Source: Marsupella aquatica
Lineage: Eukaryota; Plantae; Marchantiophyta
NCBI GenBank assembly: GCA_973895155.1
Contig: OZ316892.1
Coordinates: 1-64,000 of the forward strand
DNA: 64,000 nucleotides
Reading direction: 5' to 3'
The notes beneath the pieces are model-generated. The model searched no databases and was not told the origin of the DNA. It saw only the letters and a program-made list of their open reading frames with translations. This document shows, piece after piece, positions 14,521-59,561 of this stretch (the stretch's first letter is position 1; the number at the start of each line of letters is the position of its first letter). Both the position numbers and the translations under genes were made by a program.

Positions 14521-14551
<31 letters not shown>

Positions 14552-28461: not shown

Positions 28462-29838
28462 ATGCTCCATAAACGAAGGGAGAGGAGAAAAAATGAAAAT
28501 AAATTTCATGAATATGGCGCCGAATTTTCTATCATAACATTTTGTTCAATATGGGATTATCTAAGCAAATTATGTGAATCTAAACAACAATTTATTTTAT
28601 ATTGGATTTTAAAAAATGAAAATATTTTTGTATATTTTGTTACACACATTTTACAAATAAATGTGTCCAATTTTTCAAGAGCTAAATTTTTGAATGGGTA
28701 TAACAACTGCAGAAGTGCAATTTCACCAATTCTCCCTCTTCAAACACTTCAACAAACCGAGAAAATCTTTCATCATCATCAACAGAGACAAAAATTGCCT
28801 CCACTATTGAAAAAATTCATGGGAAAATTTCACATCCTTAACCTATCCCAACTCCGTACCTTACAAGTAGAGAGGGTAGCTTCTTGTAAAGTTGACAATA
28901 CATTCTCTTCAACACAAGTAGAAGTGCAACAAATATCAAAATCACAACTGAAAAAATTGACTGGAGTGATAATGGGAAATTGGAATGAAGACATGACTAA
29001 AACCAATCATAGTAATCTTACATTCACATTTGAGCGTTATCCATCAAATTTTCTAGTGATAGAGAAATCTGAAAATATTGTTTACTTTTACGATAAGTCA
29101 GGGAAAAAGCCTTGGCTTGTAGCAATGCTTATGCACCAACAAATATTGGGAGTGACAACATTACAATTCATTCGAAAACTTTTGAGTGCATTGTTTGTTG
29201 CTCATTCTCCATTTCAAAGAGGCGAGGGGAAAAAAGCTTTTGACAGCTTCATGACAGGATATGGTCCTTGGAATAGCAGTTACATGGGTGGCCGTTTGAC
29301 TTATTACACACACCAGAAGAAGATGAATACCATTTTCGATGATTGCCTTGATGTCAAAGATTTTGAGAAGTGGATCGATAAATATTCACATATTGAACTT
29401 ATGGATATTATATTGGGGCTTTATATGTGGTGGTGCCCAGAGATGATAGAGTGTTTTTTGGAATACTCTCATCCGTACTTACTATCATCTGATCGTGACA
29501 AATATCATGGAAGTGAAGAGCAGATAGGGGAGAATGTTAGACCTAGTACTTACCAATTATATATAAGTGAGGATTATTGTGTGCAAACACATGCTGATGA
29601 TGATGCAACTGACTTCACCTTAGCGTATGCTAGTCATCCTGACCATTTCCTTTCAGCAATCGATTTTGTAATTCCAGAGTATGGAATTCGATTGCCAATT
29701 AGAGATGGAAATCTATTTGCATTTCGGAGCGATGTTGTTCATGGTACAGGCTTTAGAATGAAAACATCGAATCCTGCATATGTTGGAGCTATTACCGTGA
29801 ATAAAAACCTCAGCAGACTGATGCAAAAATTACATTAA
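28462..29838 (+). CDS. TET/JBP-like Fe(II)-dependent dioxygenase, paralog 1 (458 aa)
   Basis: Intact ORF. C-terminal double-stranded beta-helix signature QLYISEDYCVQTHADDD (HxD, His 29590) ... FVIPEYGIRLPIRDGNLFAFRSDVVHGT (distal His 29740). The ATG follows TTTTGCAG; putative intron 28221-28461. The ORF is certain; the family assignment is motif-based. Confidence 0.72.
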   Translation: MLHKRRERRKNENKFHEYGAEFSIITFCSIWDYLSKLCESKQQFILYWILKNENIFVYFVTHILQINVSNFSRAKFLNGYNNCRSAISPILPLQTLQQTEKIFHHHQQRQKLPPLLKKFMGKFHILNLSQLRTLQVERVASCKVDNTFSSTQVEVQQISKSQLKKLTGVIMGNWNEDMTKTNHSNLTFTFERYPSNFLVIEKSENIVYFYDKSGKKPWLVAMLMHQQILGVTTLQFIRKLLSALFVAHSPFQRGEGKKAFDSFMTGYGPWNSSYMGGRLTYYTHQKKMNTIFDDCLDVKDFEKWIDKYSHIELMDIILGLYMWWCPEMIECFLEYSHPYLLSSDRDKYHGSEEQIGENVRPSTYQLYISEDYCVQTHADDDATDFTLAYASHPDHFLSAIDFVIPEYGIRLPIRDGNLFAFRSDVVHGTGFRMKTSNPAYVGAITVNKNLSRLMQKLH

Positions 29839-30745
29839 AATTATTGTGTAGATGTGCTCTCCCGGGGCAAGCTGAGAGCGCTTGGAGGGGCTACTCAAAG
29901 TGGTGAGTGCTCGTAGGGTGGAGATGACACCATGGTCATTTTGGATTTAGCCTGGTCATCATTATATTTGGTATTGAAATTCAGATTCTGACATCATTTT
30001 AGCGATTCTTTCAAGAAGAGTAAGGGTTTGGCATAATCTCGTTGAAAAATGGAATGTTGTCATCATGACTTTGCAATATTGGGCATGTTGAGGTGTGAAA
30101 GGTAAGGCATGTTACTTGTTATGGGGGTGATATATTGAAATGCGGAGGTTTTGCAAGATAGAAGAACTCAAATAAATCAAGTCAAAGGTGGAATTGACAT
30201 GATCAGCACACGTACCCTTGAGAGTAACAAACACTTTGATGATGAGGCACCAACCACAAGTTGCAAACCCCAAAGGACAAGGGTGGGTGTGGATGTCCGG
30301 AAAATGGTCTTATTCTTGTGGGGTTAGTGGTATGCATTCATTGTATGACTTTGTAGAAGAAACATACAGGCAACTTCACCTTGTTTAGTAAATCACCCTT
30401 ATTGGGCTCGTTACTTGCTTCCCATGGGCTGAAGATACAACTGTAGAGATTCTATATAGGTGGGCATCCAAACTCATCAAGGGCATAGTTACACTTGATT
30501 TGCGTGAACACCTCCAGTCATCAAATTATTGAATGTTGTCCAAACTAATCTTCTAAGCCATTTTGGTTTGCCATGACACAACCCATGCAGACCATTGAAA
30601 TAAGCACATGTGAAACTGATTTTTTTGAATACCCTGTCTGATTCTTGTAGGCCCGCTTGTAGGTCCATTACAAGGAGAGTGAATTGCAGAATTGGCCATT
30701 GTTTCTAACGGGTCTGGAAGGCTTGACAAGGTTAGTACATCTTAA

Positions 30746-31395
30746 CACTTGCATTTTATGATTGACATGAGGGCATTCCAGCACTCATGTTGCAAGGCAG
30801 GGGGCTGTTTCACCTGGATTCAATTATGATAAGAATTACATATAAAAGTAGTTCTAAAGGAAGAATTAAATTCACATCCTTTATTGCCTCCTATTATTTT
30901 CACCTTCCCATGTACTTGTTTCGTCTTAGGGTATCACAATATTTCTGGGGGCGGTGGTGGTTGGAAAAGGTTGGCACATTTTGACACTTGCATTTAACAA
31001 TTGAGATAAGGGCATTCCGGCACTCATGTTGCAAGGCAGGGGGCTGTTTGACCCGGAGTCAATCATACAAAAATTATATATAAAAGTAGAAAGAAAAAAA
31101 ACCAAATTCACATCCTACATTTCCTCCTACTGTTTTCCCTCTCCTGCTTGTTTCTATTATGGTATCATATTATTTCTAAAGAAGGAGGGGGGCAGCTCAA
31201 AAAAGTTAATATATCTTGACACTTACATTTTAATGATTGAGATGAGGGCATTCCGGCACTCATGTTGCAAGGCAGGGGGCTGTTTGACCCGGACTCAATC
31301 ATACAAGAATTACATATAAAAGTAGAAAAGAAAAACCAAATTCACATTCTACATTTCCTCCTACTATTTTCACTTTCTTACTTGTTTCTATTATA
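30746..31395. repeat. Tandem repeat of about 235-240 bp, 3 copies
   Basis: GGGCATTCC.GCACTCATGTTGCAAGGCAGGGGGCTGTTT at about 30771, 31010 and 31246. Confidence 0.9.
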
Positions 31396-34027: not shown

Positions 34028-34670
34028 ATGATTAACAAAATATCGAAGCGCCTGTCGATTTGCAACAAAGGGAGTAATGGGCCGAATGACCCCAATGAAC
34101 CAGGATCTGTAGGCGCCTCAACAACTGGAGGGGTTGGACCTGCAGCTCTGGCCCCAGCCCCGGCTGCTGCATATTTAGTTAATCTGCTGCGGGAGCTAGG
34201 GCTGCTGTAGGCCCCAGTAGCAGGAATAACGCTTTGATCAACGGCATCGGTACCCCAAGATTTGGACCAGGAAAGGAGAAGTTGTTACCAAACTTGACTC
34301 ACAATGGTTGAGGTCCCTTTTTCTATCCTCTGCCTGCTTTCAAAGACCTTCCAAATTTTGACAGGCAGAACTTGTTCATTAACAGCTCCATCTTTGCTGT
34401 TACACTTTTGACTTCACTGACCCGACAAAGAATGTCAATGACAAAGAGATTAAGAAGCAAACCTTAGTGGAGCTGATGGAAGATGCGACATCGGGAACAG
34501 GGAAGTTCACGGAGGCTGTGTTCGAAGATATCACCAAAATGCATGTAACAAGCCTGTTTCGTACGCTACCCCCCTCCTCTCATGAAAATACCGGAGTTGA
34601 TAACTTTGATCCCAAAGAGGAGGATCCAACCTTAGAACCGGCATGGCCCCATCTTCAAATACTGTACGAG
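34028..34670 (+). pseudogene. PP2A B' (B56) regulatory subunit 5' fragment
   Basis: PLPAFKDLPNFDRQNLFI / LCCYTFDFTDPTKNVNDKEIKKQTLVELME...LFRTLPP...DPKEEDPTLEPAWPHLQILYE, with a frameshift and stops; the rest of the gene is absent. Confidence 0.9.
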
Positions 34671-35189
34671 GTACGTATTTGAAGTCAATTTACAGGATAT
34701 CAATGAAGTCAAAAGCGGGCACTTCGGGTTTCAGCCCGGATCGCTCAGCTTGAGCATAGAATGCACTCAGTTACAGCAGTCAAATCTCTGTGGCTAGACG
34801 TACTACGAGTGCTGAATCTGCACTTCAATGTAGCCGCTTCGGTGAGCGTCCGAGGTCCACACTTTGAAGCATTCAGCTCCACTGGCGCACAATAAGAGGC
34901 ACGACAAATCTAATTACTTTTGAACAATCTAACTCTCTCAAAAGCGGGACTTCTAGGCAATGGATCATCAAGGTTTAATTCACTCTCCACAAGGTGCATG
35001 ATCTTGCAACTTGGTCAGCACACTCTTCGGTTCAATCCCCCCAAGACTTTGGGTCTGCTTAGCTTGGTCGGGATGCCCGATCCTACATCCTATTGTTATA
35101 TGTTGTTTCTTTGGCGTCTAGGTACCGTGGTTTCCCCATATGGATTGATCTGGGCCTTTCTCCCCTGACTCTCGGCCTTTGGCACTGAA

Positions 35190-35428
35190 GCAAAAGTTTT
35201 GGCCTTTTCTTGCCTCCTCAGCTCAACCTCCCCCTCTCACCCACCCCTTCCTGAAAGGAAAAAAAATTCACACATCAGGAGAGTCCGTAAAGCAGGTCAG
35301 TTGTAAGAAAGAGAAAAAGCTTAGCAAAAGTTTTGGCCTTTGATTGCCTCTCAACCTCCCCCTGCCACCCACCCTTCCCGAACGAAAGAAAAATTCACAC
35401 ATCAGGAGAGTCCGTAAAGCAGGTCAGC
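35190..35428. repeat. Tandem duplication of about 130 bp
   Basis: GCAAAAGTTTTGGCCTTT...AAAATTCACACATCAGGAGAGTCCGTAAAGCAGGTCAG occurs twice. Confidence 0.85.
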
Positions 35429-37748: not shown

Positions 37749-40600
37749 TCGTCGTTGTAGTATGTTGGCAGGCATATATTTCTGTTGCTCCCGACATTTG
37801 CAGAATTTTAAGATACTCGTACCAGTTGATAGTGGGAGTTGTAGACAACGTTCCTTTGGAACTCACAGGCACTTCTAGCTCGTTCATCAGCGGGCCAGCA
37901 AGCCAGCCAGCCACGCCGTCGTCAACTGAGAGAGGTAATTCAATTTCTCCGTGAACCTTGTGCATTGATAAAAATGACACTGCTATCTTCCCTCACTCTT
38001 GCTCAGCTAAAGATCGGGAAATATATAGGGGGGTCATTTCTACCTGAAGCTTTTGAATTGATAAACGGTAATCCGTCTGTGCTCTCTCGATCCCCTGAAT
38101 CTTGCTTTGACAAACAATGCTTGTTTCTCGGGGTGCAATCTTGGTTTGGTTGAAGACGAAGATGACGTTTACTTGTGGCAAGCACATCATGCATCATTTG
38201 AATTGCGGCTTCGTCTGCTGCCTTTTTGTCCCTTTTCCTAATCCTGTGGAGGATTTCCCTGTAAATGAGGACCAAGCGTGCGTTGCTGGGTTCGTTGGTG
38301 GAATAACAAAAGAGAAAGGGAGAGACACGGGACAATTTGTAGATATCCTGTCCTTGAGTCACTCATGCCCTACGGTCGTGTTTCTGTTTCTCGATTGTGG
38401 TCTTGCTCTGTCTGACTCTTACCTGGTTGAGCTTTCTATCGAATTCCCCTACTTCCCTGGACTTTGTAATTTTATTCAACAGCAATTTATTCTCTCCAGT
38501 TGCAATAGCTGCATCCAGATCCTTTCAAAGATCGCATACTCGTTTTGGGCTGCATTAGATTTTAGGCTTTCTTGTGCGAGTATGCCTACCAGTCGAGCTC
38601 CCAGTTCTTTGTTTGTTGGACTAAGTCCGACGCAAGTGATACTGATCTTCCCCGGCCAGTCTTTCGATTTCTTCCTTGAGGGAATTGTGTAAAACGAACA
38701 GTATTTTGCTCGCGGAATGCTGCAGCAGAATCTTTGGTGGGTATATGTCTGGTGCTGGAAATTTCATTGCCTCTAGGTCAATGTACAGGAAATTGGAGTG
38801 TAATCAAACGACAAACTGAGAGGTCTGTGTGTCATCTATGTGGTCTTTGGCAGTCTGTGACGCTCTTGTCTTCCTTCTTCCGTGTCTTCGGTCTGTCTGT
38901 GGAATTGACGATGTTTAAGCCCGACATGCTGATTGAACTGAGGTCATTTGCAATAGCAATTTCTTGATTTTCCCCTTGTAAATTGACTTGCATTGAAATC
39001 GTGGTGCTTCAATCCCAGTCTACTTCTAATCTTCTTCCGTAACAGCCTTTCTCGGGCAGCCTTTTGTAGTAGTATTCAACCAACGAGCACCTGCACGAGA
39101 AACTGAGAAAGTGCTGTGGATGAAGTACTGTAGTTGATTAGATGCTTCTGAGAGTTTGCAATAATTGTCCAAACTTGTCCAAACCCACTTCACCACAATG
39201 AAAACAATGTAGATAAGCGTGAAATCTTGGCAGCTCTCTAGACAATCTCATGTCCCTGCTGTGCAACTGGGAGGGTAGGGTACGTTTACTGCCTTCGCGG
39301 TAAGGAAATTGCGACACTGAAATGTAAGGTGACCGACTCTCCCGCATTTCTTACAGGCACCATAGACGTCATCCGCGCTCGAGCCTGTGAGACGGGCTAA
39401 GGCGAGAAGCCCTTGGAAACTGTCATACGCATTCTGCTGGTCCTCTATTATCCTGCCTTCTGGAACAGATGCACTCGGGCCCCCCGCTGGAGCACCGCGG
39501 AGGGCATCCGCTTGGAATGCTCGCGCTGCCTTCTGGTCCGGAGCATAAGGATCGTAACTTTGATTTGAAGTGAATTATAAATCAAATCTTCTCCCCACAC
39601 TTCAGGGACTTTGCAATCTGTTCCAACGCAAAGGACCCTGGTGAGCTCAGCTCAACTCAGTGGGGCCGCAGCATAAGTAGAAGGTCCTTCATTGATCTTC
39701 TAGCTCCCAACACTTCAGGCACTTTGCATGAGTCTCGTCGTAGTAGTACGTACCCGTAAATTGTGGCGCTTGATTCAATTGTTGAGTTATATGGCATTCT
39801 GGAGCTTTACTTCTCCTTCTCAACAAGCGGGGTTGCACACCAACTTTGCCACAACACTTGCTACCACCCATCAACAAGCTAGTTGATTTTGAGCACAACC
39901 TTTACATGGTATGCTTCTTAGTTGGTATTTTTGAAATGTCTTTTAATTGGAAGTTCACACCCATTGATTCAGTCCTTAGATTGATTTTTGGTAGGGTGCA
40001 GCTCATATAGAATTAGTGATACAATGATTGTTTCTTTCACGTTCCTAACCTCACAGAGTTTACTTTAGTCTCTTTTGGATACCCTGTTACAATCTACAAA
40101 GTAGTTATTTGCTTTTAGGTAAACATTTGTCTTGCATGTCATTTGTACTTTGCTAGGTTGGAAGTCTAAATGCTAACACTTTGGCAACAATAGGTTCCAG
40201 TTTCCTATGTTAAATGTGTACAGTCAGAAGGGAGCCAGAGTATATTCTTAAGGGCTTTTGTTCTTCAAGGACTTACTGCAAGCAAGTGAAACTTGTTAGT
40301 TAAGTACAAGCTCATTTTGGCATTAATTTGATGTTTGTTTGCAATCAGCTCAAGTTGCTACGTGGAGCCCCAAATACTAACCTAGAAGTTGGGAAATCAT
40401 ACTTGAATTTCGTTTATTTTCTCTAAGGTGAGTTCCTACTATCATTTATTTGTTTTAAGTATAATTCATGAAGGACATGGAAAAATAAAATAAAGCAAAG
40501 AAAATATAAGTATTTTAAAACAAATATTGACTATATTTTTCTACTTATTATCTTATGAATTTGCCTAACATATGTATTATAAAACTAAACAATTGACTTT

Positions 40601-40764
40601 ATTTTGAAATATATATTTGGCATGCTTTTCTGATTATTGTTATTTAATAGTTCCAGATAGTTTGGCCGGAGATATGTATTTTGAAATATGTATCTGGCAT
40701 ACTTTTCTGGTTATTGTTATTTAATAGTTCCAGATAGTTTGACTGGAGATATGTATTTTGAAAT
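40601..40764. repeat. Tandem duplication of about 77 bp inside the predicted intron of dioxygenase paralog 2
   Basis: ATTTTGAAATAT.TAT.TGGCAT.CTTTTCTG.TTATTGTTATTTAATAGTTCCAGATAGTTTG occurs twice. Confidence 0.85.
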
Positions 40765-40806
40765 AAATATCTGTATAAATTAAAGTATGTTTTTGGAATT
40801 TTTCAG

Positions 40807-42249
40807 ATGGCAAAACGAAAGTTTTGGAAAGTGAACAAACAAATGAAGGAAGATGGCAAATATGAGTATGAGAAAATGAAATTTGCAATGGACGTTTTCA
40901 TTCAAATTTTTTCAGCGATCATGATATTGCATCCACGTTCACAAAAGTTTGCCATGTTATTTCTTCTTCAAGAAGATAATATTTTTCAAGCATTTGTACA
41001 AAATGTATTGAATATTAAACATACTGTATCGAAAGCAATGATATATAATGCTTACTATAGATTTAAAGAAATTGGACCACCAAAAACCTTTACTTCTTGC
41101 GCATGGGAGAATATCTGTGATATTCTTGATCATCATTATTCTTTAGATTCAGTACCCTATAGTATAAGAAAATACATCCATTTTCTTAGGTCATCTACCT
41201 ATATTGAAGAGTGTGTAAAAAGAGAAAAAAATATGCTAGAGAAAAAAGAAATGGTGTTTGAAAAAATTATTTCCCAATTTTGGTGGGGAAATGTGAATCC
41301 AATGGAATTAGTGCAAGGATTTTGGGGAAGAGTTGATGATGAAGGTGAATGTTTTTATCGCTTAGAATTAGAAAAAACATTACAAATACTTTCTAGAAGA
41401 AAAAACAAAGGGAAAGAAATTGAAATTGAAGAGGCACCTATATATAGGGAGCTTCCAATTTCTTACGTTGAAATCCAAAAAACAAAACAGGTTACGGAGA
41501 TCTATGATAAAATCTCAAGTGAGCTAGTGGGTATCCATATTCGCCCTAAAGATGTTCATAAATCTTTTACTATATTGATGCGAACTTATCTTAAAGATCT
41601 TTTTTGTGCTCATCCAAGTTCAAAAAGATCTAAAACTAGAGCATCCTATATGAGTGAAATGGTGGGGTTCGGTCCATTTCACCATACATGGACACCTGGA
41701 AAAAATGTTACATCTTTCTACACTCATAGTAATAAGTTAGTAAAAGCTTCAAAACCTTTAAAAGATTTTGGTAGATTTATTGATCGATTTGCACATGGGG
41801 CTGTGGTAGAAATTTTAATGTCTATGTGGTTTAGATATTATCCTACGTTATTACATACTTTTCTTAGATGTTGTAACCCTTACTTAGAAACTTCCCAATA
41901 TATTAAGGAAGGTGTTGAGATACCATTTTTTGATAAGCACATGAAGAAGGGACCTCCTGCTTATCAACTATTCATTACTAGAGATTATTGTTCACGTTTT
42001 CATGTAGACAATGATAGGACAGAGTGGACACTAGCATATACTAGTCACCCTGATGAACATATTTCACCAGTTGATTTTGTATTTGCCAAACATGGATTTA
42101 TATTACCTTTGCATAATGGTGATTTATTTGCATTCAAAGGCAAACATCTCCATGGTATGGCTTTTAGAAAACCAACAGAAAATCCTGCATATATTGCAGC
42201 TTTAGTTATGAATAGTGGCTTAGGACAATTATTAAATAGAATAGAGTAA
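40807..42249 (+). CDS. TET/JBP-like Fe(II)-dependent dioxygenase, paralog 2 (480 aa, most divergent)
   Basis: Intact ORF. SEMVGFGPF; YQLFITRDYCSRFHVDND (HxD, His 42001); DFVFAKHGFILPLHNGDLFAFKGKHLHGM (His 42151). The ATG follows TTTTCAG; putative intron 40428-40806. Confidence 0.72.
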   Translation: MAKRKFWKVNKQMKEDGKYEYEKMKFAMDVFIQIFSAIMILHPRSQKFAMLFLLQEDNIFQAFVQNVLNIKHTVSKAMIYNAYYRFKEIGPPKTFTSCAWENICDILDHHYSLDSVPYSIRKYIHFLRSSTYIEECVKREKNMLEKKEMVFEKIISQFWWGNVNPMELVQGFWGRVDDEGECFYRLELEKTLQILSRRKNKGKEIEIEEAPIYRELPISYVEIQKTKQVTEIYDKISSELVGIHIRPKDVHKSFTILMRTYLKDLFCAHPSSKRSKTRASYMSEMVGFGPFHHTWTPGKNVTSFYTHSNKLVKASKPLKDFGRFIDRFAHGAVVEILMSMWFRYYPTLLHTFLRCCNPYLETSQYIKEGVEIPFFDKHMKKGPPAYQLFITRDYCSRFHVDNDRTEWTLAYTSHPDEHISPVDFVFAKHGFILPLHNGDLFAFKGKHLHGMAFRKPTENPAYIAALVMNSGLGQLLNRIE

Positions 42250-44557: not shown

Positions 44558-45857
44558 CTTAAGGATGAAGTCGGTGATGATCTCCAGAATGAAGGATTGC
44601 CTGTCTTTACCAGCGGGTAGAATGGCCCCGAGATGCCCATGATCCCTGAAGATAGCCTGAGACAATACCCTGCACAGATTCCAACCGCTATTTGACCGCC
44701 AATGTAGAATGGCACCTGTGGTGTACAGCATTGCAATTGACCCCTGGGTTTAGTGCAATCCATCATCTGTTGTTGATTTGACTTGATCTCGATCCTCTAC
44801 GACCCCGTACCCAACTTCCACTAAAGAATATGCTTGATGGAAAGATTGCTTATCTAGGCAAGCATTCTGGCAAAAGCACTCACATCTTTCCAGGGAAAAT
44901 GCTGCACAGTTGCAAAGGCAACGGTGACCGAAGGATTCAAGTGTGCACCTGAAATGTGACCCACTGCATATATCATGTTCATGACAACAATCCCAAAAGA
45001 TAAAGACATGCCCACATGCGTCACGGCTCCATTGATCGAGCTTCGCATCCACTACCGCAGATCCACAATCAGTGAACACCAGGATGAAAGTAGCAATGAT
45101 TTCTGCTCCAACCTGCTTCAATACAAGGATTTCTCCTGGTTAGCTGGTGAGATTGGCCGTTGGCATTGTTCTCCTCAAGGGATGTGGTCTTCACTCACTT
45201 ATTGCATTGACCCCATTGAGGATGTCTACGTTCAGATTCATTTCGTTCGTATAAGCTTCAAAGGAATGTTATTTAGCTTCCCAACAGCAATACTGCGGAC
45301 AGTATCACAAGCTCCCAAGTATTAATCGGGATTAATTACAAGGACTTATGTGAGGACTGGGTAGAGGGGTCCATGACATTCATTTGAAACTTTTAAAAAA
45401 GCCTGTAGTAGTCCTCACCGAGAAGTTCGGAGCGAGTGCTTTCAATGCAGCATGCAAGCCAAAAAAGATTAATGTGCGAGGAAGAGGTTCCAAGATGTGG
45501 TAATTGCCAAAAAGATGAGAGATCTTGAGAAACTATGCTACTACAAAAACAAGCTAGCATAGTACAGAGATGAAATTTATCAGTGTGCAACCGGTAGTAG
45601 GAACTTACCTTTCGCATAAGACATGTATATGGCAATTTCAAGGATCCCAAATATCCACACCCTGGTTGTTCGTCTGCGAGAGGCATATCGACGGTCTGGT
45701 CAAGGGGAGAATTCTCAAATCGCTGGCTCAATGACGGATGTTTTGCTGCAGCAGGAGGAACGTCAGTTGGAACACGGGTATCGTTCCCCAACACATAATG
45801 GTCCTTGGCTTGCAGTTTTGCTCTTCCTGCCATCTGGTCGTTCGAATGATCTGCCAT
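44558..45857 (-). pseudogene. NIP (NOD26-like) aquaporin 5' half with introns; exons about 45857-45609, 45112-44884 and 44715-44558
   Basis: KVGAEIIATFILVF, GHISGAHLNPSVTVAFA (NPA-box variant), QVPFYIGGQI. GT-AG borders are present; frameshifts in exons 2 and 3; second NPA half missing. Confidence 0.88.
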
Positions 45858-47029: not shown

Positions 47030-50000
47030 TCAATTCTCACACCGAAATTCAGGATACTTGATCCTCACAATGGTTGCTACAAGACGCATAAAATTGTTGC
47101 CCAGAGCCTCAGGACTTGTAGACACAACCCATTCACACAGCTCCTGGTCACTTTTCCCTTTGATTTCAGGAATTGCTCGGAATAAATCGCTCTGTATGTT
47201 ATCAAATCGCCATGCCTTCCACACAAAAAGCCGCAATCTCTCTCCTGATTCATCTTCACACTGATCTCCATACAGCCCTTCATGAAATCTCATCCCACTA
47301 GGCTGGTGTGGGAAGTGACACTTGAAACAAGTGTCTGGTCGAGAAGGAAACTTGTTATCGCAATTTGCACGGTTGTGTGTTCCTAGACACTTCACACATC
47401 GTCCCCGTACATAAGGACATTGCAAAATACCATGAGGAACACTCTTTGAGAGGGGACTCCAACACATCAAGCACTTTTTCCTATCCCCAGCAAATTTACG
47501 GATGATACAAATCTTATTCATGGCTTCGTCAATTCTTTGTTTGATGAGTGTTGGTCGAGCTCTTGCCACAACCGTGGTTGTGGTTCCTTTGCCTTGGGAT
47601 GATCCGAGTGATGATGCTGGTGTTGTTCTTTCACCTGGTGCTGTAACCCTAACACTCTGTCCTCCTTGTATGTTTTGGGAGATGCTCCCCTGAGATACAA
47701 TTTCAACCACTTCTGACCTAGCTTGTGATAATTCTTCGGCCTCATATTCCATTGGTAGTTCCTGATTGTCTGCTGCTTGGGAGCATATGTCACAAGGAAT
47801 TGCATCCGGGATGAGGTAACACATCTGTGGCTTACCATCAACGCTAGCATGTAGTGCAAAGCGACGACACATTTTTGTCTCCTCAATCCATTTGTTTGGA
47901 ATCTTGAAGTTGGAGTCCATCCTCAAGGCCTCATTGCGGTAGCTGGAGTTAGAAACAACAGTGCTTATTGCTAATAAACCATCACGCCCAGCTCGGCCAG
48001 ATTCCTGATGAAATTGCTCAAAGGACCTGAAATTACCTCTGTGAATTACAAGTCTGATTGACTTGTAATTATAGCCAGAACCAATGACCCCAGTTGCCAC
48101 CATGATTTCACAACCCTTCGACTCCCACTTCTTCAAGGTTTTCACGGTGTCTGCTGTGCTACATCCTGCATGCAAAAATGTACAGCACAAGTTCCTGGCT
48201 TCGAGTAGCTTTGCCATCTCTTGGACTTCATCTCTTGTTAGGCAATAGACAATGGCCCGGTCATGAACCAGGCTAGATCTCTTCCAATCTTGAAGCTGTC
48301 TAACTATTTCTCCATCCATGTCAGGCACTTCCACAACCATGTATCGGATGTTTGGCCTAACAGTAGAAGAACGAACCCAATGTAATCTTGAACCCAAAGT
48401 CAGTTCGATATCAGATTGTTGTGTGGGTGGTAATGTCGCTGTTAATCCTATAATTTGACAGGGAACTTTCATTAGAGAAATCAGATTTCTCATTTTTGGA
48501 CGGAAATGACACTGTAGTGTATGAATCTCATCAAAAACAATCGAATGCAATCTTTGTGTAGCTTGCAAGTGGTTTGCAAAGACACCAAATGTATCTGAAT
48601 CAGCTGCAGTCTCGATAGATACAAAAACAATTGCAGGTGTTACTCCTATCCCGAGTGCAAATCCACTTGTAAACACAGTGTGACCAATTCCTGCTTTTCT
48701 GCATTCAGATAAGTGACCCGATATGAGAGATTTGAATGGGACTACCACAATCACTGTTTTGTCCATCAATGTGGAAGGGGCCATGAAAATCAATGACTTT
48801 CCTGTTCCAGTGGGAAGTACAGTTACAAAATCCACAGTGTTTTCAATAGCCAAAGCAACAGAGATTGCTTGTTCAGTTGACCTCCACCTTTTGTGACCCA
48901 ACTTGTGTAGAGCTATGGAAGCTCTTATACTTGTGTCGTGACAGATGTGCAGTGCCGAATCAACATCTCCCACAACTGATGTTGATGGTTCTCCATAGGC
49001 AGGGCAATAAACAACCCTTGTCTTGCTTGGAACATGATCAATTTCAAGCTCAATGTCATGACGTGGACGTAGAACAGTAGTGGTTCTTGGAAAAGGATCT
49101 AGTGTGACTTCCCTGCAACCTGTTGTTGAGCAATCCAGATGAATCAATCTTGGGGACTTATCCGAAAGATTAAGCAATGCATGCCACTTATCTGTAAATA
49201 TTCGGAATGCTCTCAAGAGATGTCCATCAATAGCTCTTAAATCTTTTACACTTTGAGCATAATGATGTCCCATTGTAGCTGTTGTATGTCCACCTGCCAC
49301 ATCTACAATATCATCAAGATCTTGAGTGCGTTGGTCTCGAATCTTTTCTGAAAAAAATGCTGCTAGGTGTCGGTATTCTGAAAGCCCGAATGTGACTCCA
49401 CAACGCTTAAAGAAATTGTTGTGTATGCTCTTGGAAAGATCATGTGCATCTTGCTTTTTATCCATATCAACGAACCAACAATCATCATAATTACGGGCAA
49501 CCTCCTTTCCCCATATTTTCTGTGCAACATAAGATTGTGTAGGCCTCACCAAACAAAAGTATACCAGAAACAGAGTTCTTAAAGAACTTGGAAGAAACCG
49601 TATAAGTGGTTTCATTGGAGCACCTGTATTTGCACCTTTATGATAGGTTTGAAAGAGCGCTATTGTATGATGCTCTAACAATTTTGTTGTTGGATCATCA
49701 TCTGGGCCTGCTGTTGCCCAATAAAATGACCTCTCGCTTGTGGCTGTGTTGCGAATCAAGAAACTGTTGTACTCTTCGCCCCTTGCTGGTAGACCGGCAG
49801 TGAAATGTATAAGCAGATTCAATTTTTCTTGTAAATCAGAGCAAGCAGTCATCCACTTATAAAGTGTGATATCATTCCAAATGACATCATTTCGATCTGT
49901 CCGCCCGAGAATAAAGTGTCCTCTAATCTTAGGATCAACAAACAAGTGTGTTAGTAGATCGAGGCCATGTTGCTGAAGAATCCGGTTGCGAGGATCTATG

Positions 50001-52000
50001 ACAAAGTTGTACCCAACTTCTGTGTTGTTGACATCGTCGTAAATAGCACGACTCTCCTTAAGTAATTTGTCAACCCAATCTGTTCGGAGACCAAGAAGCA
50101 CATCACAATTTAAAATTGAGTGGGCTTCTTGAATAATAGCATGCACCATATCTCGAAAATTGTCGATTGTAATAGATTCACCATCAACTAGACATGCTGT
50201 ATTATTGGCATTCAATGGTACTAGTCTTGGCCATACTGGAGTCCCTACAGTAATCCTATTTGCCAAGCGCAGAGATTGCGATACAATAGTAAATGGAGTA
50301 GGTAGTGCTATGTCACTTAAATATTGAAGAAGTCGATCAGCTTCTTCATTAAGAATGGTGCTTGGGTTTTTATGCCAAAAACATTGTGCAAGGTGCATCA
50401 AAATGGTCGCCCTAGCCCAATATTTGAGTATCGCCATTGGTTGTGTAAGATGACGAACATGCCGAAATGAATACTCTTCTGCTTCTGGACTGTGGCCAAC
50501 TTTTATGAGTGAATGTAAAATAAGAAACCGAGTGAAAATACAGTTCGCTGCTCTTCCTGCTTCAAGTGTTGCAGGCATCTTTGGAGTCCAAAGATGAATC
50601 AACACATTATGTAGAACAGCTAAATCAACATTGTCAATAGAATTGTCATCTAATTCATTGAGTTGACTCATGAATTTTTGAAGAGCAATTTCCATTTCTT
50701 CTCTGTTTGTTTGAAAAACATGAATGTCCGAACTAAGCTCATTAGAAGATGATCGAAGCAAGCAGAGAATGAATTCTGTGATTATATCATAGTACCTACT
50801 CCTTGATGATTTTGAGTTCAATTGATTGAATCCCACTGCAACATCATCATTGATATTTGTCTTCTCCACTAGTCTTCTCAATCTGTAATCCACCTCTTTA
50901 AGAACCAAATCTTGTACATTGTTCATGTAGATAGTCACCACTTGACTGACATATGAGAGTGGAGATTTGCCCTGCTTTGGTGGTGGGAGCATCTGTGCTT
51001 TCACCTGCAAAAATGGTACCCCTTTTGGCATGAATTGGGCCGCAAGCTCATGCCATTTAGACTGTGCTAGCCATGGAGTTAGCTCAGCAATTGGAGGTAG
51101 AAGTTCTAACCGCAAAGACTGAAAATGGTCATCAAACTCCTTTGTGATTATAGCCCTCAAACTTTTAGATTGCAAGTGACAGTCATCCCCATCGAGATTG
51201 AGATTGTGATGTTGAACACCGAAGTATTTGAGGCCTATAACACGATCTGAGAGGATTTGAACTTGGCATTCACTCTTCACATTGACATAGGACAACTCAG
51301 GATGTTTTCTCAAACGATGATTGGACATTGACCTTTTCTCCCCACAATAGTAGATGCATTGTTTGCAAGAAAAGCCGTGTCGAATGACAACACCTGGTAC
51401 TGGAGAAAGCAATGCAGCTGGTGGATCTCTTGTATATGGTAATATGGATGTATCATCCATGCTTGTAAAAGAGAACTGTTGTAAGCTCCTCAATAGTTGA
51501 TGACTGTCGTAGTCTGATGCTATTCGATGACACCTTGATTTCTCCCGTTGATGCTTTTGAACATGATGAATGATATTGATATTTTCATTGTATATGAGTA
51601 CCGAATGACACTCTATACATACAAGGAAAACCAATTCCTCATGACGAACAACGCAGAGATTAACACTTCTCAAGATCTCTGGTGTACCAGAATGATCTGG
51701 TGTAATGCACAATCCTTCATTAACCGCCAAGTCGTGTGGATCAACAAATCTTTCGACTTGATTAACATGGATTGTGTCATAGTGTCGGCGAAGACTATCG
51801 CCGCGTGTGTAATACTGACAACACATATTATCGGGGCATGCGAACATCCCATTTTCAGACTTGTGGAGGATCTCCACAGTGCCATCGCAATGCTTGAATT
51901 TGAACGTCATCCTGTGCTCAAAACGTTTGTGAGCATCTCTTGCTCTTGCTGATTGAAAAATCTGCTCACACGCACTACATGGAAAAATGGTTGTCTCCAT
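47030..52000 (-). CDS. Zn-finger / tyrosine-recombinase-like / RecQ-type SF2 helicase fusion (1656 aa), telomere-linked-helicase-like
   Basis: Intact intronless ORF. N-terminal C2H2 fingers and a DUF3505/OrsD-like Cys/His region. Helicase motifs WRSTEQ, LPTGTGKS, VPFKSL, DEIH, LTATLPP, IVYCLTR, VATGVIG, QESGRAGRDG, then a CRR..C..CDIC Zn site and a Cys-rich C-terminus. First ATG at 52000 (the track start at 52024 is TTG). Confidence 0.88.
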   Translation of the reverse strand: METTIFPCSACEQIFQSARARDAHKRFEHRMTFKFKHCDGTVEILHKSENGMFACPDNMCCQYYTRGDSLRRHYDTIHVNQVERFVDPHDLAVNEGLCITPDHSGTPEILRSVNLCVVRHEELVFLVCIECHSVLIYNENINIIHHVQKHQREKSRCHRIASDYDSHQLLRSLQQFSFTSMDDTSILPYTRDPPAALLSPVPGVVIRHGFSCKQCIYYCGEKRSMSNHRLRKHPELSYVNVKSECQVQILSDRVIGLKYFGVQHHNLNLDGDDCHLQSKSLRAIITKEFDDHFQSLRLELLPPIAELTPWLAQSKWHELAAQFMPKGVPFLQVKAQMLPPPKQGKSPLSYVSQVVTIYMNNVQDLVLKEVDYRLRRLVEKTNINDDVAVGFNQLNSKSSRSRYYDIITEFILCLLRSSSNELSSDIHVFQTNREEMEIALQKFMSQLNELDDNSIDNVDLAVLHNVLIHLWTPKMPATLEAGRAANCIFTRFLILHSLIKVGHSPEAEEYSFRHVRHLTQPMAILKYWARATILMHLAQCFWHKNPSTILNEEADRLLQYLSDIALPTPFTIVSQSLRLANRITVGTPVWPRLVPLNANNTACLVDGESITIDNFRDMVHAIIQEAHSILNCDVLLGLRTDWVDKLLKESRAIYDDVNNTEVGYNFVIDPRNRILQQHGLDLLTHLFVDPKIRGHFILGRTDRNDVIWNDITLYKWMTACSDLQEKLNLLIHFTAGLPARGEEYNSFLIRNTATSERSFYWATAGPDDDPTTKLLEHHTIALFQTYHKGANTGAPMKPLIRFLPSSLRTLFLVYFCLVRPTQSYVAQKIWGKEVARNYDDCWFVDMDKKQDAHDLSKSIHNNFFKRCGVTFGLSEYRHLAAFFSEKIRDQRTQDLDDIVDVAGGHTTATMGHHYAQSVKDLRAIDGHLLRAFRIFTDKWHALLNLSDKSPRLIHLDCSTTGCREVTLDPFPRTTTVLRPRHDIELEIDHVPSKTRVVYCPAYGEPSTSVVGDVDSALHICHDTSIRASIALHKLGHKRWRSTEQAISVALAIENTVDFVTVLPTGTGKSLIFMAPSTLMDKTVIVVVPFKSLISGHLSECRKAGIGHTVFTSGFALGIGVTPAIVFVSIETAADSDTFGVFANHLQATQRLHSIVFDEIHTLQCHFRPKMRNLISLMKVPCQIIGLTATLPPTQQSDIELTLGSRLHWVRSSTVRPNIRYMVVEVPDMDGEIVRQLQDWKRSSLVHDRAIVYCLTRDEVQEMAKLLEARNLCCTFLHAGCSTADTVKTLKKWESKGCEIMVATGVIGSGYNYKSIRLVIHRGNFRSFEQFHQESGRAGRDGLLAISTVVSNSSYRNEALRMDSNFKIPNKWIEETKMCRRFALHASVDGKPQMCYLIPDAIPCDICSQAADNQELPMEYEAEELSQARSEVVEIVSQGSISQNIQGGQSVRVTAPGERTTPASSLGSSQGKGTTTTVVARARPTLIKQRIDEAMNKICIIRKFAGDRKKCLMCWSPLSKSVPHGILQCPYVRGRCVKCLGTHNRANCDNKFPSRPDTCFKCHFPHQPSGMRFHEGLYGDQCEDESGERLRLFVWKAWRFDNIQSDLFRAIPEIKGKSDQELCEWVVSTSPEALGNNFMRLVATIVRIKYPEFRCEN

Positions 52001-52009
52001 CGATCCTAG

Positions 52010-52300
52010 GGGTTGTGGGTTCAAGGGGAAGTTGTGTCTTGGGTTGGGTAGGTTGAGAGTTGTGTGTTGGGGGTTGAGTGAGTTGGGGATTTAATTTGTT
52101 GTAGAGTTGGGTGTTGGGGGTTCAGGAATTGGAAGTTGTGTCTTGGGTTGGGTAGGTAGACAGTTGTATGTTGGGGGTTGAGGGAGTTGGGGAGTTATGT
52201 GTTGGAGGTTGAAGGAGTTTGGAGTTTGGTTGTGGGTGGGGGTTGACATTGTGGGTTGGGGGAGTTGTGGGTTGGGAGTTGCCGGGGAAGTTGTTTGTTG
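52010..52300. repeat. G/T-rich telomere-like degenerate array immediately upstream of the helicase start
   Basis: Runs of GGGTTG, GAGTTGGG and GTTGTGTGTTGGGGGTTGAG; the reverse complement resembles 14452-15162. Confidence 0.8.
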
Positions 52301-52689
52301 GGATAGAGACAACCATGTTGTAAAAGATGGACAAGAAAGATGATAAAGAAAATCCAACACAAAAGGGAAAATCAACACTAAACCTTTGAACCTTTGATCC
52401 CTGAGTATAGACAGCCACAACAAGGGCAGACTGACACATTGGGCAGTCAGTTGTAAAAGATGGACAAGGAAGATGATAAAGAAAAGCCAACACTTAGTCT
52501 AGAAAGAGGGGAAATTCAGAGAAAATCTGGACTGTCAATAAGAAGAGATAGATGGGCAAGATCATGTGCAAGGACTTCAATTCAATCCAATCTTCAATGG
52601 AAAATCCCAGTTCTTACAATATACGGTTAACATAATTATGTATACAAATCATCATTCCTGCTTATATGTCACAAGTATCTCCTCGACAA

Positions 52690-52890
52690 GACAAGTCAAC
52701 AATAAATATCAACCTGCTTATCCGCCACAAGTATCTCCTCGATAGGACAAGCCAACAATAAATATCAACCGTGAAAAGTCAAAAATAAATGTTAGCCGTG
52801 GAAAGTACCTCCTTGACACGACAAGTCAACAATAAATATCAGCCATCGAAACAATAAATATTAGCATGGAAAGTCAACAATGAATGTTGG
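52690..52890. repeat. Degenerate short repeats (GACAAGTCAACAATAAATATCAACC)
   Basis: Five to six degenerate copies. Confidence 0.7.
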
Positions 52891-53890
52891 CCGTGGATTT
52901 TAAATGAACGGGCCAGATGCTTGTATACACACGACCACACCATCTTCTTCACGACCGCCACTACACTTGTTACAGGCCTCCAAAACAGCCACACAGCCGC
53001 TGCACTACGGCCGTAATGCGCCGATAATATATATAGGACTTCTGATTGCTGGTCTCATAGCTCGCAAGGTGCACTGTCAAATTCCCATAACGCCACGTTC
53101 GACTGGCTCAGCTCCGCTGTCAAGAACGATGGGCTTAGCCTTCTTAAGGTCGATCCACTTACGGTGACAATTCTCCGAGGAGAGCTCCTGGTCAAACTCT
53201 TGAGTGTCGTCCACCTTGAAGGAACCGGAGCTAACTCCTTTCCAGCTTCCTTTCTTCAACTGCGCATGGCCAGCCTGCTCTACTTTCAGCTTTCCAGATG
53301 CTACTGCGCGTCAGGGAGAGCACTATGGGTTGTGGGTTGGGCAAAGCCTTCCCTCAAATCCACAATAGTTTTGAATCCCTTTCCACCAGCCGGCTTAGCC
53401 CTGCCTCACTGATGTCCCCACCTCGCCAGAAAGCCACATTTTCATCCTTGTAAAGGGATCGTGCACTTTTGGAAGACCGAAGCCTAACGGGTGCAAGATT
53501 GGGGATATCAGCGGAACTAGGGATTCCCCGGAAAACCAGCATCCAGGCAAGGCATTCTTCAGTTTCAGCATCCTTTCCTGAGCTTCCAATCCTTGCTGAG
53601 AATCAAAGGGCAAGAGGGATTCCAGAGCCCACTCTAGTGTTTGATGCTATGGAATGACATCTAATTTTAGGGTCCCTAAACCCTAGTGACATCTATTTGT
53701 AGGAAAGAAGTCTTCATTGTTTACAAACTTGATTCATGCTTGTTTCATAGCAGTCCTTGTATTAATTAAAACATCAATGTGCTCTTAGTTAAGAAAACTA
53801 CTATTGGGGAATAAATGACCTTGCCATGAGTACTCTATTTGGATGGCAGTTTTTACTGCAAAAGTGAGGAGGTCTGGCTGGGATGGGACA

Positions 53891-54133
53891 TCATTGGGTT
53901 TGCGCATTCTTAAGCCATGAATTGCTGACTATTTTGTTCAAGATGACTCCAAAATTCAATGAATCCAGTATATACTAGATGGACTAGGTCTATGCAACTA
54001 GGATGGGAGACCTTTTAATATTCATTGGGTTTGCACATTCTTAAGCTATGAATTGCTGACTAGTTTGTTCAAGATGACTCCAAAATTCAATGAATCTAGT
54101 ATATACTAGATGGACTAGGTCTATGCAACTAGG
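53891..54133. repeat. Tandem duplication of about 131 bp
   Basis: CATTGGGTTTGC.CATTCTTAAGC...GGACTAGGTCTATGCAACTAGG occurs twice. Confidence 0.9.
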
Positions 54134-54628
54134 TTAGGTTTTCTCTTCTGACCATGTTGTCATTATTATAACAAAAATTAACAATCTTTATTTAGTCCAA
54201 TTTTAACTCACAAATTTCCAACCATACTTTAATAACCTATAATTAATTTTTATAGATAATTTTTGGTTACATGCATGAATGATCTTAGTGTACACATGAT
54301 ATATGACATTGAAATCTACAATTTATTATGTAACCCTAAGGATTATCATTGCAATGACAATAATTCTTTTGAATCCTTTGTATTTTATCTCATTCGTATC
54401 CTTGTTTGAAATGGTGTTGCAGAGTTCTTTTGGCTCTTCATGTCAACATAGAATCAAGGTGTAGGGTGAGCAATTGTAGTAGTGGATCAGATCTCTGCGT
54501 GGGCTCACGAACCTGAAGGTAGGGCTGGTGTCCATCCTATACACAGTGACACTTCCAATTCATTCCAATTACAACAAATATCTTTCCAGCATGTCAACTA
54601 AATTGCAATGTCTTATTGATTTGTAGGC

Positions 54629-55309
54629 ATGGCACGTAACAAGCAGAAGGCCAAGAAGCCTAAGACGGAGGTGAGCAACACACAGGTGTCTTGCACAGAT
54701 TGTGAGAATTTCTCCAAGAGTCAAGTGTACCAGAAGGCAGCTCATTGTTGTGCCATTTGTGATGATGGTGGGGGCTTGGTTATCTGTGATGGCCCATGCA
54801 CAAGACATTTCCACCTAAACCCTGAGTCTAACCTTGCTGTAGAGAACAATTGTCCAGGGGTGGGGCTCCCCTCTGCACACAAGGGAGCCTGGATGTGCAC
54901 TGATTGTGTAGAGAAGCAAGCTAAGTGTGCACAGTGTGGAAAGTTGGGGTCTTATGAGACCTTTGCTGATGCCGGACTAGTTGTTAGGAAATGCCCTGAC
55001 AGATTTTGCATAAGATTTTATTGTTTGTCATGTTTGCCTACTCATGCCACAGTCTGCCCACTTCATACATGCAAGGCATGTGGTGAGCATGATGATGAGT
55101 ATTGGACAGACATAGTCCATTGTGTTAGATGTCCCACAATGTGACATTTTCATTGTTTGAAGGACCTTCAAGCAGAAGGCTATGCTTGTGACAGAGAAAT
55201 CTATGATCACTCTGCACATGGCGTTGATCGATGGATCTTTTACTGTCATCGCCATCCGATTGATCCTACTTTGCATACTCCTGTCAGAGATCACATATCT
55301 TGGCTTTGA
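54629..55309 (+). pseudogene. Stand-alone EDM2/NSD-type composite PHD-finger gene (226 codons) with one premature TGA at 55142-55144
   Basis: CAICDDGGGLVICDGPCTRHFH...WMCTDC..KQAKCAQCGKLGS...C.RFYC..C...CPLHTCKAC...CVRCPT. The frame continues past the TGA as HFHCL...RWIFYCHRHPIDPTLHTPVRDHISWL*, matching the EDM2 PHD tail motif (IYC..H.ID..L.TPVRDH). Confidence 0.82.
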
Positions 55310-55960
55310 AGCTGAACGAAGTGGGTTGGTACAGTGCCCCTAATGTGGATGTATTGTTTGGAGATTACAGAGAGTTCATTTTTGATGAGAAGGGCCATTG
55401 AAATATTAGGCAACAGTTATCTTGTGCTTACATGTGGCTAGGTACATGCCACTAAAAACTTACCTTAAGCCTTCCATGATCTCTTCAGACTGAGCAATCA
55501 TTTTGAAAATTAATAAAATTATAAACTTATTGTTATGTGTCTATGAAGTATAAGGCTTTCGGATGACAAATTCTTAGTTTGTATAAATTCTTGATTCTGA
55601 TTCAATGGGTAGTCCTTCATTTATAACATACTTTATATGTATTATCACAAAACAATACTCAAGACACTATCTCCTTTTTGTATTCTGTGCAGTATCATTC
55701 ATATCAACATTTGTACAATATTGAAGCCAGACCCAAGAAAAGAAGTGACAACTGCTTTCGACAAATCAGTACTTTGGGAAGGTGAGTACCTAAACATCAA
55801 ATTTATTTCTTTCTGTCCTCCTAAATCTTAAATGGTTCATAAATCCAATGACAAAAGTTACAACTTACGGCATTTTGGTACTCAGATCTTAAATGGTTCG
55901 TGTACTATTTGACCGGAATTGTAATTTTTACTAAATAAATTATTTGTTCTTACATGGCAG

Positions 55961-57325
55961 ATGGGAAAAAGAAAGCATAATACTTTAAGAAAAAAAGAAT
56001 TGGGGGAAGATTTTTCTGTGGATGTATTTGCTACAGTGTGGGAAGACCTCAAAAAATTAGATACCGTAAAATTGAAGTTTGCACTTCATTGGATTCTATG
56101 TCATGACAACATTCTTGAACTTTTTGTTAAAAAAGTTCTTAAACTAGAGTCTTCAAGATTTTCAAGAACACTATTCTTGAATGGGTATCAAAATTGTAGA
56201 AGCCATATCATTCAGATCTTTCCTCCTGAGGTGTTCATTGAAATTGATGATATCTTTTTTCATCATGGTTTCAGACTAAAATTACCTCAACCTTTGAAAA
56301 ATTCAATTACTATGTTTTCTAATCTTGACATTAGAAAGCTTAAACTTTTTCAAAAAGAAAGAGATAATCTTTGTAGAAATGGAGGAACTTATGCTAAAGT
56401 TGAAGTAGACGTTCAACGTATTTCCTCTTCAAAACTAAAAACACTTACTGGTGTAATTTTAGGTGATTGGGATCAAACTACAACAACATTTACCTCTGAT
56501 CCAAACTTTATTTTCTTAAAATTTCCATCAGACCTCATTATCGTAGAAGAAAAGAAAGGATTTACCTATCTTTTTGATAGGTCTGGAGTCAAACCATATT
56601 TGATAGCAATGATATTCCATCAAGATATCCTATCACCTGATTCAATGGTCTTCATTCGAAGATTATTAGAACAATTACATGCTGCCCATCATGTTATCCA
56701 AAGAGGGAAAGGAAAAAGATCATGGGAAAGTAAGATGACAGGGTTTGGTCCTTTTCATAATCCTTACAAAAAAGATCAAAGTTGTGTATCTTTTTATACT
56801 CATGAACAAAAGATAAAGACATTCTTCAATCAAGATTGTCCCGATGCAGCCAATTTTGAAGACATGGTAGATAAATATTCTCATCGAGAGTTAATCGACA
56901 TTATTCTTGGACTCTACATGTGGTTATGTCCACAAATGTTAGACAGCTTTTTAGATTATTCTCATCCTTACTTATGTTCAAATGATTATAAGATGAACAT
57001 ATTTGAGAAAGCACTAAAATGTAAAGGTCCTAGTGCTTATCAATTATATATTAGTAAAGATTATTGTGTAGAAACTCATGCTGATCATGATACAGCAGAA
57101 TTTACTTTATGTTATGTTAGTCATCCTGATGCCAAGATTTCTCCTGAAAACTTTGTTATTCCAGAGTATGGAATATTATTACCTATTAGAGATGGTAATT
57201 TATTTTCATTTTGTAGTGACATTATCCATGGCACAAGATATAGAATTCCAACATCAAATTCTATATATGTAGGAGCTGTTACCATAAACAAAAAATTAGA
57301 TAGACTTTTACAAAGAAAACATTAA
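55961..57325 (+). CDS. TET/JBP-like Fe(II)-dependent dioxygenase, paralog 3 (454 aa)
   Basis: Intact ORF. SKMTGFGPF; YQLYISKDYCVETHADHD (His 57077); FVIPEYGILLPIRDGNLFSFCSDIIHGT (His 57227). The ATG follows GGCAG; putative exon 55693-55781 and intron 55782-55960. Confidence 0.72.
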   Translation: MGKRKHNTLRKKELGEDFSVDVFATVWEDLKKLDTVKLKFALHWILCHDNILELFVKKVLKLESSRFSRTLFLNGYQNCRSHIIQIFPPEVFIEIDDIFFHHGFRLKLPQPLKNSITMFSNLDIRKLKLFQKERDNLCRNGGTYAKVEVDVQRISSSKLKTLTGVILGDWDQTTTTFTSDPNFIFLKFPSDLIIVEEKKGFTYLFDRSGVKPYLIAMIFHQDILSPDSMVFIRRLLEQLHAAHHVIQRGKGKRSWESKMTGFGPFHNPYKKDQSCVSFYTHEQKIKTFFNQDCPDAANFEDMVDKYSHRELIDIILGLYMWLCPQMLDSFLDYSHPYLCSNDYKMNIFEKALKCKGPSAYQLYISKDYCVETHADHDTAEFTLCYVSHPDAKISPENFVIPEYGILLPIRDGNLFSFCSDIIHGTRYRIPTSNSIYVGAVTINKKLDRLLQRKH

Positions 57326-59410: not shown

Positions 59411-59561
59411 GAATAGAACAAATGCTTGAAAAATGTTGAAAATAAACTGTCTTCCAAGAGGAATGGTAGAGATCATCATTCCACATAGCCCTCCACTGAA
59501 ATTTTGCCGTGTCCACACAAGACAACCACGCTTTGATTAAAGACCAGTGCTAGATTCTTCA

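Follow-up and report, generated by a model that had tools for sequence, protein, structure and literature searches.

Flowering plants are not known to have TET enzymes, which chemically alter methylated DNA bases. The described enzymes closest to the genes analysed here are the TET/JBP dioxygenases and CMD1 of Chlamydomonas reinhardtii. In TET2, residues R1261 and R1896 bind 2-oxoglutarate (2OG), and correspond to R224 and R289 in NgTET1 and to R244 and R410 in CMD1; an aromatic residue six positions after the second of these arginines stacks the base, a His or Arg eight positions after it reads the base, and an Asp or Asn five positions after the first His reads N4 (Li et al. 2021, PMC7854593). 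TET genes are also found in 11 lineages of fungal transposons, with only the residues H, D/E and H common to all types (Kojima 2025, PMC12730594), Chlamydomonas carries Helitron-borne TETs, and an endogenous giant-virus TET has been implicated in the removal of 5-methylcytosine (5mC), keeping its own element unmethylated (10.64898/2026.10.09.758095). Reviews see plants as glycosylase-only and give CMD1 a narrow range. Here we describe three TET/JBP-like genes, A, B and C, in the first 64,000 nucleotides (the window) of contig OZ316892.1 of the liverwort Marsupella aquatica (GCA_973895155.1).

The best reading of our results is that A, B and C are Fe(II) dioxygenases derived from a mobile element, which probably act on a DNA base, most plausibly oxidising 5mC with 2OG, in an active-site pocket that has apparently been rebuilt. 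Intact and selected TET-fold genes in a land plant call the view given above into question for early-diverging lineages, and make A, B and C candidates for enzymes that produce oxidised cytosines in the DNA of plants. A pocket lacking both arginines thought essential for 2OG may point to a new mode of 2OG binding or to a new base chemistry, and either would also bear on the TETs of fungal transposons that lack these arginines.

Reading frames, predicted fold and active site

An earlier reading of the sequence alone had described three intact open reading frames (ORFs), and A, B and C, all on the + strand, are indeed free of stops (Table 1); at the local base composition, frames as open as these would arise by chance with a probability of 1e-16 to 1e-18. 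Every motif that it listed is present, namely MxGxGP(F/W), YQL(Y/F)IxxDYC, HxDxD, FV..G..LP, the distal HG(T/M) and the three strings that follow the distal His, and alignments spanning the whole length give protein identities of 48-49% between A and C and 26-28% between B and either of them. Its proposal of an expanded family under selection also stands: Nei-Gojobori dN/dS is 0.33 for A and C (about 0.6 when B is one of the two, with dS close to saturated), which points to purifying selection, and an HMMER search over 1.84 billion representatives with an E threshold of 0.001 gathered a family of 72 proteins, of which 43 remain at 1e-10. In what follows, "outer" denotes the 10 distant matches and "core" all others plus A, B and C; the domain alignment, A4, holds 64 rows, 11 N-terminal-only or chimeric matches having been left out.

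The placement of A, B and C in the TET/JBP fold and family is well supported by modelling. An AlphaFold2 model of residues 150-454 of C, built on alignment A4, reached a pLDDT of 88.9 and a pTM of 0.88, and Foldseek placed CMD1 (E 1.4e-8), TET2 and CcTet above FTO and every other oxygenase. In a VIA comparison with 48,161 chains the top eight rows were nucleic-acid oxygenases, with Z scores of 15.1 for TET2, 14.5 for CMD1, 13.6 for NgTET1, 12.3 for AlkB and 12.1 for CcTet; a second look gave a tie between CMD1 (Z 15.5, 244 residues aligned, root-mean-square deviation 4.1) and TET2 (15.4, 238, 4.2), followed by NgTET1 (13.8), CcTet (12.9) and AlkB (12.6, 172 aligned). The alignments cover 200-245 residues for CMD1, TET2 and NgTET1 versus about 172 for AlkB, and the named top viral matches are TET/JBP domains of phages and giant viruses. 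The assignment as TET/JBP-like thus held against TET/JBP, CMD1 and AlkB structures, with CMD1, TET2 and NgTET1 on top, and best matches to non-nucleic-acid oxygenases, which the sequence-only reading had named as evidence to the contrary, were looked for and did not occur. The N-terminal 150 residues are predicted to be helical with low confidence (a four-sequence model, pLDDT 40, without structural match).

At the sequence level, no Pfam family, Tet_JBP (PF12851) and 2OG-FeII_Oxy_6 (PF20515) included, matches A, B or C at the curated cut-off; below it, PF12851 matches one and PF20515 six of 64 family members (best E 0.0014). The ESM Atlas neighbours are fungal clusters and clusters partly labelled Tet_JBP (16% of members) or 2OG-FeII_Oxy_6 (15%). 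In the PDB, the family profile matches CMD1 (E 0.001) from the HxD to the distal His, its only TET-family sequence match. Word-index protein searches returned 1 and 3 matches, and no related locus appeared in the metagenome contigs, viral contigs or phage records searched. Matches to USP16 and Rad50 lie outside the catalytic core, are absent from the structure searches and were set aside as due to chance. Of 20 members looked up, three carry an organism name, two of them that of a Geranomyces chytrid and one that of Planoprotostelium; all three belong to the outer group.

The H-x-D...H iron triad is present in all three paralogs and in 30/34 aligned sequences. As the sequence-only reading had it, no Arg occupies the canonical position that holds the C5 carboxylate of 2OG: the residue is Ala in A and B and Ile435 in C, and the canonical Arg occurs in none of the 24 core sequences that span the last hairpin, nor in any of 26 core sequences at column 435. 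Its statement that Tyr stands in place of this Arg was mistaken by one residue. The register was set by profile-profile alignment with five outer relatives in which an Arg preceding the last strand is invariant. Both hhalign (probability 98.7%, E 1.8e-16) and MAFFT align that Arg one residue before the Tyr, and the alternative register was rejected; Tyr436 of C is the +1 residue, where the five relatives also have Tyr, Phe or Ile.

The column of the second 2OG-binding Arg holds Trp in A, Phe in B and Phe265 in C; it is aromatic in 22/33 core sequences, and Arg occurs in 2/33 of the core versus 4/4 of the outer sequences. From its motif position, traced through relatives rather than by direct alignment to TET2, this column would correspond to TET2 R1261. 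Further substitutions line the pocket: the hydroxyl position of the R-x-S/T motif (column 437) is Val, Ile or Met in 24/25 core sequences, the position six after the canonical Arg, a base-stacking Tyr or Phe in TETs, is Thr, Val or Ala in 24/27 (T441 in C), and the position eight after it, His in TETs, is Asn in 22/27 (N443). Residue 363, in the column of CMD1 S335, is Tyr or Phe in 34/35 of the core, and D377 is kept in 32/34 sequences. Read from the alignments, the remodelling of the active site goes beyond the earlier account, with both 2OG arginines and the base-stacking aromatic apparently replaced.

Is there another arginine that could serve the 2OG site? At distal His+5, an Arg (R428 in C) is found in all three paralogs and in 18/24 core sequences; two more of the 24 have it at His+6. 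Among the 10 outer sequences, five have the canonical Arg, four an Arg at His+6 and one neither; none of the five with the canonical Arg has one at His+5. Taking His+5, His+6 and the canonical site together, 29/34 sequences that cover the last hairpin have an Arg at one of them, and the CMD1 residue at His+5 is Leu. This pattern suggests that the Arg has been relocated to distal His+5. The uncanonical chemistry put forward in the sequence-only reading is weakened: the absence of the canonical Arg stands, and an Arg elsewhere filling the 2OG site, which that reading had itself named as telling against it, is a live possibility.

Two groups of relatives deserve mention in their own right. P0063, P0064, P0066, P0068 and P0071 form a separate TET-like clade that also lacks the canonical C5 Arg, four of the five having an Arg at distal His+6. 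P0059 and P0069 (Geranomyces, TET-like) keep the canonical Arg and have H-x-A in place of H-x-D, the pattern of 2OG halogenases.

Candidate reactions

Tentatively, and at somewhat less than even confidence, we propose that A, B and C carry out a 2OG-dependent oxidation of 5mC with a relocated Arg. The triad would bind Fe(II), and R428 would reach into the space beside the small residue at column 435 (I435 or Ala) and hold the C5 carboxylate of 2OG. The flipped base would be stacked between F/W265, standing in for the cation-pi Arg (TET2 R1261), and Y/F363, standing in for the aromatic at TET2 Y1902, here Thr or Val; it would be read by D377, near CMD1 D350, and by N443, at the place of TET2 H1904 and CMD1 R418. 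The product may reduce silencing of the repeats in which the genes reside, A and B now being single-copy and possibly domesticated. The failure of the canonical TET and CMD1 residue tests lowers the case for a TET2-like or CMD1-like enzyme, not the case for an enzyme that works like a TET.

Several observations weigh against this proposal and the mobile origin joined to it. Both arginines described as strictly conserved for 2OG binding are absent from A, B and C, and 4/24 core sequences have no hairpin Arg at all. The relatives with the canonical Arg form one clade (99/100, in a tree of 35 of the 64 rows), so the Arg swap counts as one event and not many. In Z, AlkB-type N-demethylases lie just about 3 behind. 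CMD1 activity is killed by R244A and by R418A (PMC7854593). As for mobility, no transposase of the KDZ, hAT, EnSpm, Plavaka or Helitron type was found among 232 ORFs scanned in the window, which is short, no DDE transposase adjoins the genes, and no terminal inverted repeats flank A, B or C among its 25 longest inverted repeats.

A related reading, unlikely in our estimation and still to be kept in view, makes the three proteins 2OG dioxygenases that act on another nucleic-acid substrate, such as thymine, an N-methylated base (N6-methyladenine (6mA), N4-methylcytosine (4mC) or 3-methylcytosine) or RNA. Each base-contacting position differs from TET2, NgTET1 and CMD1, with an aromatic lid, a moved floor and Asn for His or Arg, and there are precedents: CcTet also acts on 6mA (PMC12730594), NgTET1 acts on thymine (PMC12344493), and 4mC is reported to be abundant in a liverwort. 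Against this, the invariant Asp adjoins the position that reads N4 of cytosine, the silencing mark of plants is 5mC, and most characterised TET/JBP enzymes modify 5-methylpyrimidines (PMC4738411).

A change of co-substrate, to ascorbate or another small acid, or a new product, either of which would yield a non-canonical DNA base, strikes us as improbable. It would fit the replacement of both canonical arginines and of the R-x-S/T hydroxyl by non-polar residues, as well as the standing of CMD1 as the top Foldseek match and the sole TET-family sequence match. The columns of the vitamin-C contacts of CMD1 are also in keeping with it, that of T337 being Ser or Thr in 30/35 core sequences and that of T399 Thr in 20/27 (Met in B), although neither is diagnostic, as relatives with the canonical Arg share both. 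The CMD1 analogy of the sequence-only reading nevertheless breaks down, because CMD1 keeps both arginines and excludes 2OG by Trp358 (PMC7854593). That column is Val, Ala or Thr in a direct hidden Markov model alignment to 7cy4, so the means by which CMD1 excludes 2OG is absent from A, B and C; the R244-type column is Phe or Trp, and both residues are essential in CMD1. The tie between CMD1 and TET2 in Z and the presence of a conserved alternative Arg speak against a switch as well.

Still less probable is that the proteins bind methylated DNA with little or no catalysis and have kept the fold and the metal site all the same. The loss of both 2OG arginines would normally cripple catalysis, and the Asp of the triad is missing from two relatives in chytrids, but the triad and pocket residues are the best conserved columns among sequences that are 20-50% identical.

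The boldest synthesis of these data would be a TET lineage of non-seed land plants in which all contacts to co-substrate and base have been rebuilt except the iron triad, which writes a base undescribed in plants (by using a different co-substrate from 2OG, or by acting on a base that is not 5mC), and which was spread by a gene-capturing mobile element and later domesticated. Taken as a whole, we consider it doubtful.

Genomic setting and probable mobile origin

Runs X1 and X4, which come from two studies, each have single contigs that span A and B at background depth, equal to that of the flanking plant-gene fragments; A is also covered by contigs without gaps in run X3, and B by one gap-free contig in each of X1 and X4, with 1-2 differences. 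These contigs argue against contamination, and it is very improbable that the genes are fungal or protist contaminant sequence, for all that the named relatives are only fungal and amoebal and the coding regions intronless and AT-rich, or that they act on non-nucleic-acid substrates, given the nucleic-acid oxygenases at the head of the structural ranking. At C, several diverged contigs match each site, one of them with a 1-base insertion that shifts the frame, and depth reaches at most about 10x background in X3; depth is here a hint of extra copies and not a copy number. Among the listed C variants, 6/12 are synonymous versus about 21% synonymous sites, a figure drawn from the best-supported rows and inflated by transitions, which we do not count as evidence.

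The placement in plant DNA claimed from the sequence alone was borne out by an IRK/PXC2-type leucine-rich-repeat receptor kinase and by PPR fragments, which mark the host as a land plant. The receptor kinase, likely a pseudogene or captured copy, shares about 40% identity with proteins of angiosperms and of lycophytes; a quick tree with few non-seed sequences joins it to a lycophyte and leaves it outside the angiosperm clade (support 0.86), a weak hint that the host is a non-seed plant. The ORFs of A, B and C have 31-35% GC and are CpG-poor (observed/expected 0.24-0.51). Directly before the ATG of each stands a CAG acceptor, and 180-380 bases further 5' there is a GT(A/G)AGT donor, an arrangement that suggests a 5' intron common to the three genes. 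A truncated fourth copy, D, which like these acceptors had escaped the sequence-only reading, matches 55655-56188 at 82-84% DNA and 71% protein identity; a profile search of all 1608 window frames of at least 25 amino acids (aa) found no catalytic domain beyond those of A, B and C.

A mobile origin of A, B and C is likely. Fragments of PPR, topoisomerase II (twice), phospholipase C EF-hand, PP2A B56, zinc knuckle, aquaporin and NAD-kinase phosphatase genes lie around them (among 218 ORFs of at least 55 aa), a mosaic of scattered host-gene pieces that is typical of gene-capturing elements, and non-autonomous copies of an element would lack a transposase.

Other features of the window are listed in Table 1. 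The two copies of the topoisomerase II and EF-hand block are 89% identical and lie 4.3 kb upstream of D and 0.7 kb upstream of A; an EF-hand exon in the latter is open with a phase 0 end and could therefore be spliced to A as a fusion. The PHD-finger ORF upstream of C has TGG in other copies at the site of its TGA and a depth of 30-200x background that drops sharply near 54730 and 55317; its listed variants are mostly synonymous, which indicates a selected high-copy element. It presumably resembles the PHD region of EDM2. Its fusion to C is not supported, as the PHD frame closes with a stop of its own and no upstream phase evidence exists for the exon that precedes C. The ORF between B and C combines zinc fingers, tyrosine-recombinase-like motifs (by eye) and a RecQ-type helicase, has single-copy depth and its nearest Atlas clusters are ascomycete; it may be what drives a so far undescribed mobile element of a plant, and our literature search found no publication describing a recombinase-RecQ ORF of this type.

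Table 1. Features of the 64,000-nucleotide window
Feature	Position	Strand	Remarks
Paralog A	28462..29838	+	458 aa; intact single coding exon; TET/JBP-like dioxygenase
Paralog B	40807..42249	+	480 aa; intact; most diverged
Paralog C	55961..57325	+	454 aa; intact; multi-copy subfamily; residues of note H373-x-D375...H423 triad, F265, Y363, D377, R428, I435, T441, N443
Catalytic domain of C (residues 150-454)	56408..57322	+	predicted double-stranded beta-helix with TET-type flanking elements
Copy D	8331..8776 (approx.)	+	C-type truncated pseudogene lacking the catalytic domain; keeps the upstream exon, the intron and 60 codons that include a stop (8744-8746)
Predicted intron before A	28221..28461	+	GT-AG, ends directly 5' of ATG; from sequence
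Predicted intron before B	40428..40806	+	GT-AG, ends directly 5' of ATG; from sequence
Predicted intron before C	55782..55960	+	GT-AG, ends directly 5' of ATG; from sequence
NSD-type PHD-finger ORF	54629..55309	+	650 bp upstream of C; broken by TGA 55142-55144; Pfam PF23011 E 9e-5, below curated cut-off
OrsD-RecQ ORF	47030..52000	-	1656 aa; intact, intronless; Pfam DEAD, Helicase_C, OrsD
Telomere-like repeats	52000-52290		just upstream of OrsD-RecQ ORF
IRK/PXC2-type receptor kinase	21228-23960	-	split over four frames
PPR fragment	610-822		
E-motif fragment	24332-24637		
PP2A B56 fragment	34383-34679		
Zinc knuckle fragment	39251-39574		
Aquaporin fragment	44857-45051		
NAD-kinase phosphatase fragment	53357-53602		
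Topoisomerase II and phospholipase C EF-hand block, copy 1	903-3974		
Topoisomerase II and phospholipase C EF-hand block, copy 2	25327-27751		
EF-hand exon	27196-27456		
Tandem repeats	13376-14341		eight 121-bp copies
C-rich telomere-like repeats	14450-15160		68-72% inverse-complementary to 52009-52293
Long terminal repeat (LTR) retroelement part	59400-64000	-	rve integrase; two 400-aa ORFs that overlap and match no Pfam family

Comparison with known TET-family enzymes

The nearest named sequences are the Geranomyces and Planoprotostelium fungivorum relatives (E 2e-5 to 5e-4; hhalign 98.7%). These uncharacterised proteins differ from A, B and C in keeping the canonical C5 Arg (5/5) and the C1 Arg (4/4 aligned). 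Among characterised enzymes, CMD1 (PDB 7CY4-7CY8) is the top structural match and a weak sequence match, with the T337, F371 and T399 columns kept, whereas its R244, R410 and W358 columns are here F/W, A/I and V/A/T, its F416 and R418 columns T/V and N, and identity is 14%; Arg244, His249 and Arg418 lie outside the directly aligned stretch, so that F/W and N in the first and last of these columns are assignments through relatives. TET2 and NgTET1 share the fold and its flanking elements as well as the triad, while R1261/R224, R1896/R289, Y1902/F295 and H1904/H297 all appear replaced (with the register taken through relatives), and A, B and C have an additional N-terminal region of 150 residues, predicted to be helical.

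The TETs of fungal transposons show, by eye, the same order of motifs, and their C5-Arg position is also variable (Kojima 2025, PMC12730594): by eye, 18 PU-type rows have Arg in 10, His in 5, Gln in 2 and Lys in 1, and four PE-type rows are without an Arg two residues after the conserved Gly (the upstream Arg). Since some of these enzymes, in rust and truffle transposons, are without such arginines too, Arg loss alone is not new, and it is not special to this plant, as 8/18 PU rows have His, Gln or Lys at the C5-Arg position. They differ from A, B and C in that PU keeps G-(W/F)-R in 18/18 rows and PE has HxE, in that these rows have no Arg at His+5, and in that they lie inside transposons with a transposase and termini, in fungal hosts. 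Our literature search, which did not cover the Iyer 2013 and 2014 surveys that may list plant members, found no publication on land-plant TET/JBP genes or on this family. Set beside CMD1, TET2, NgTET1 and the fungal transposon enzymes, what appears to be new in A, B and C is the combination of Arg losses together with the land-plant host.

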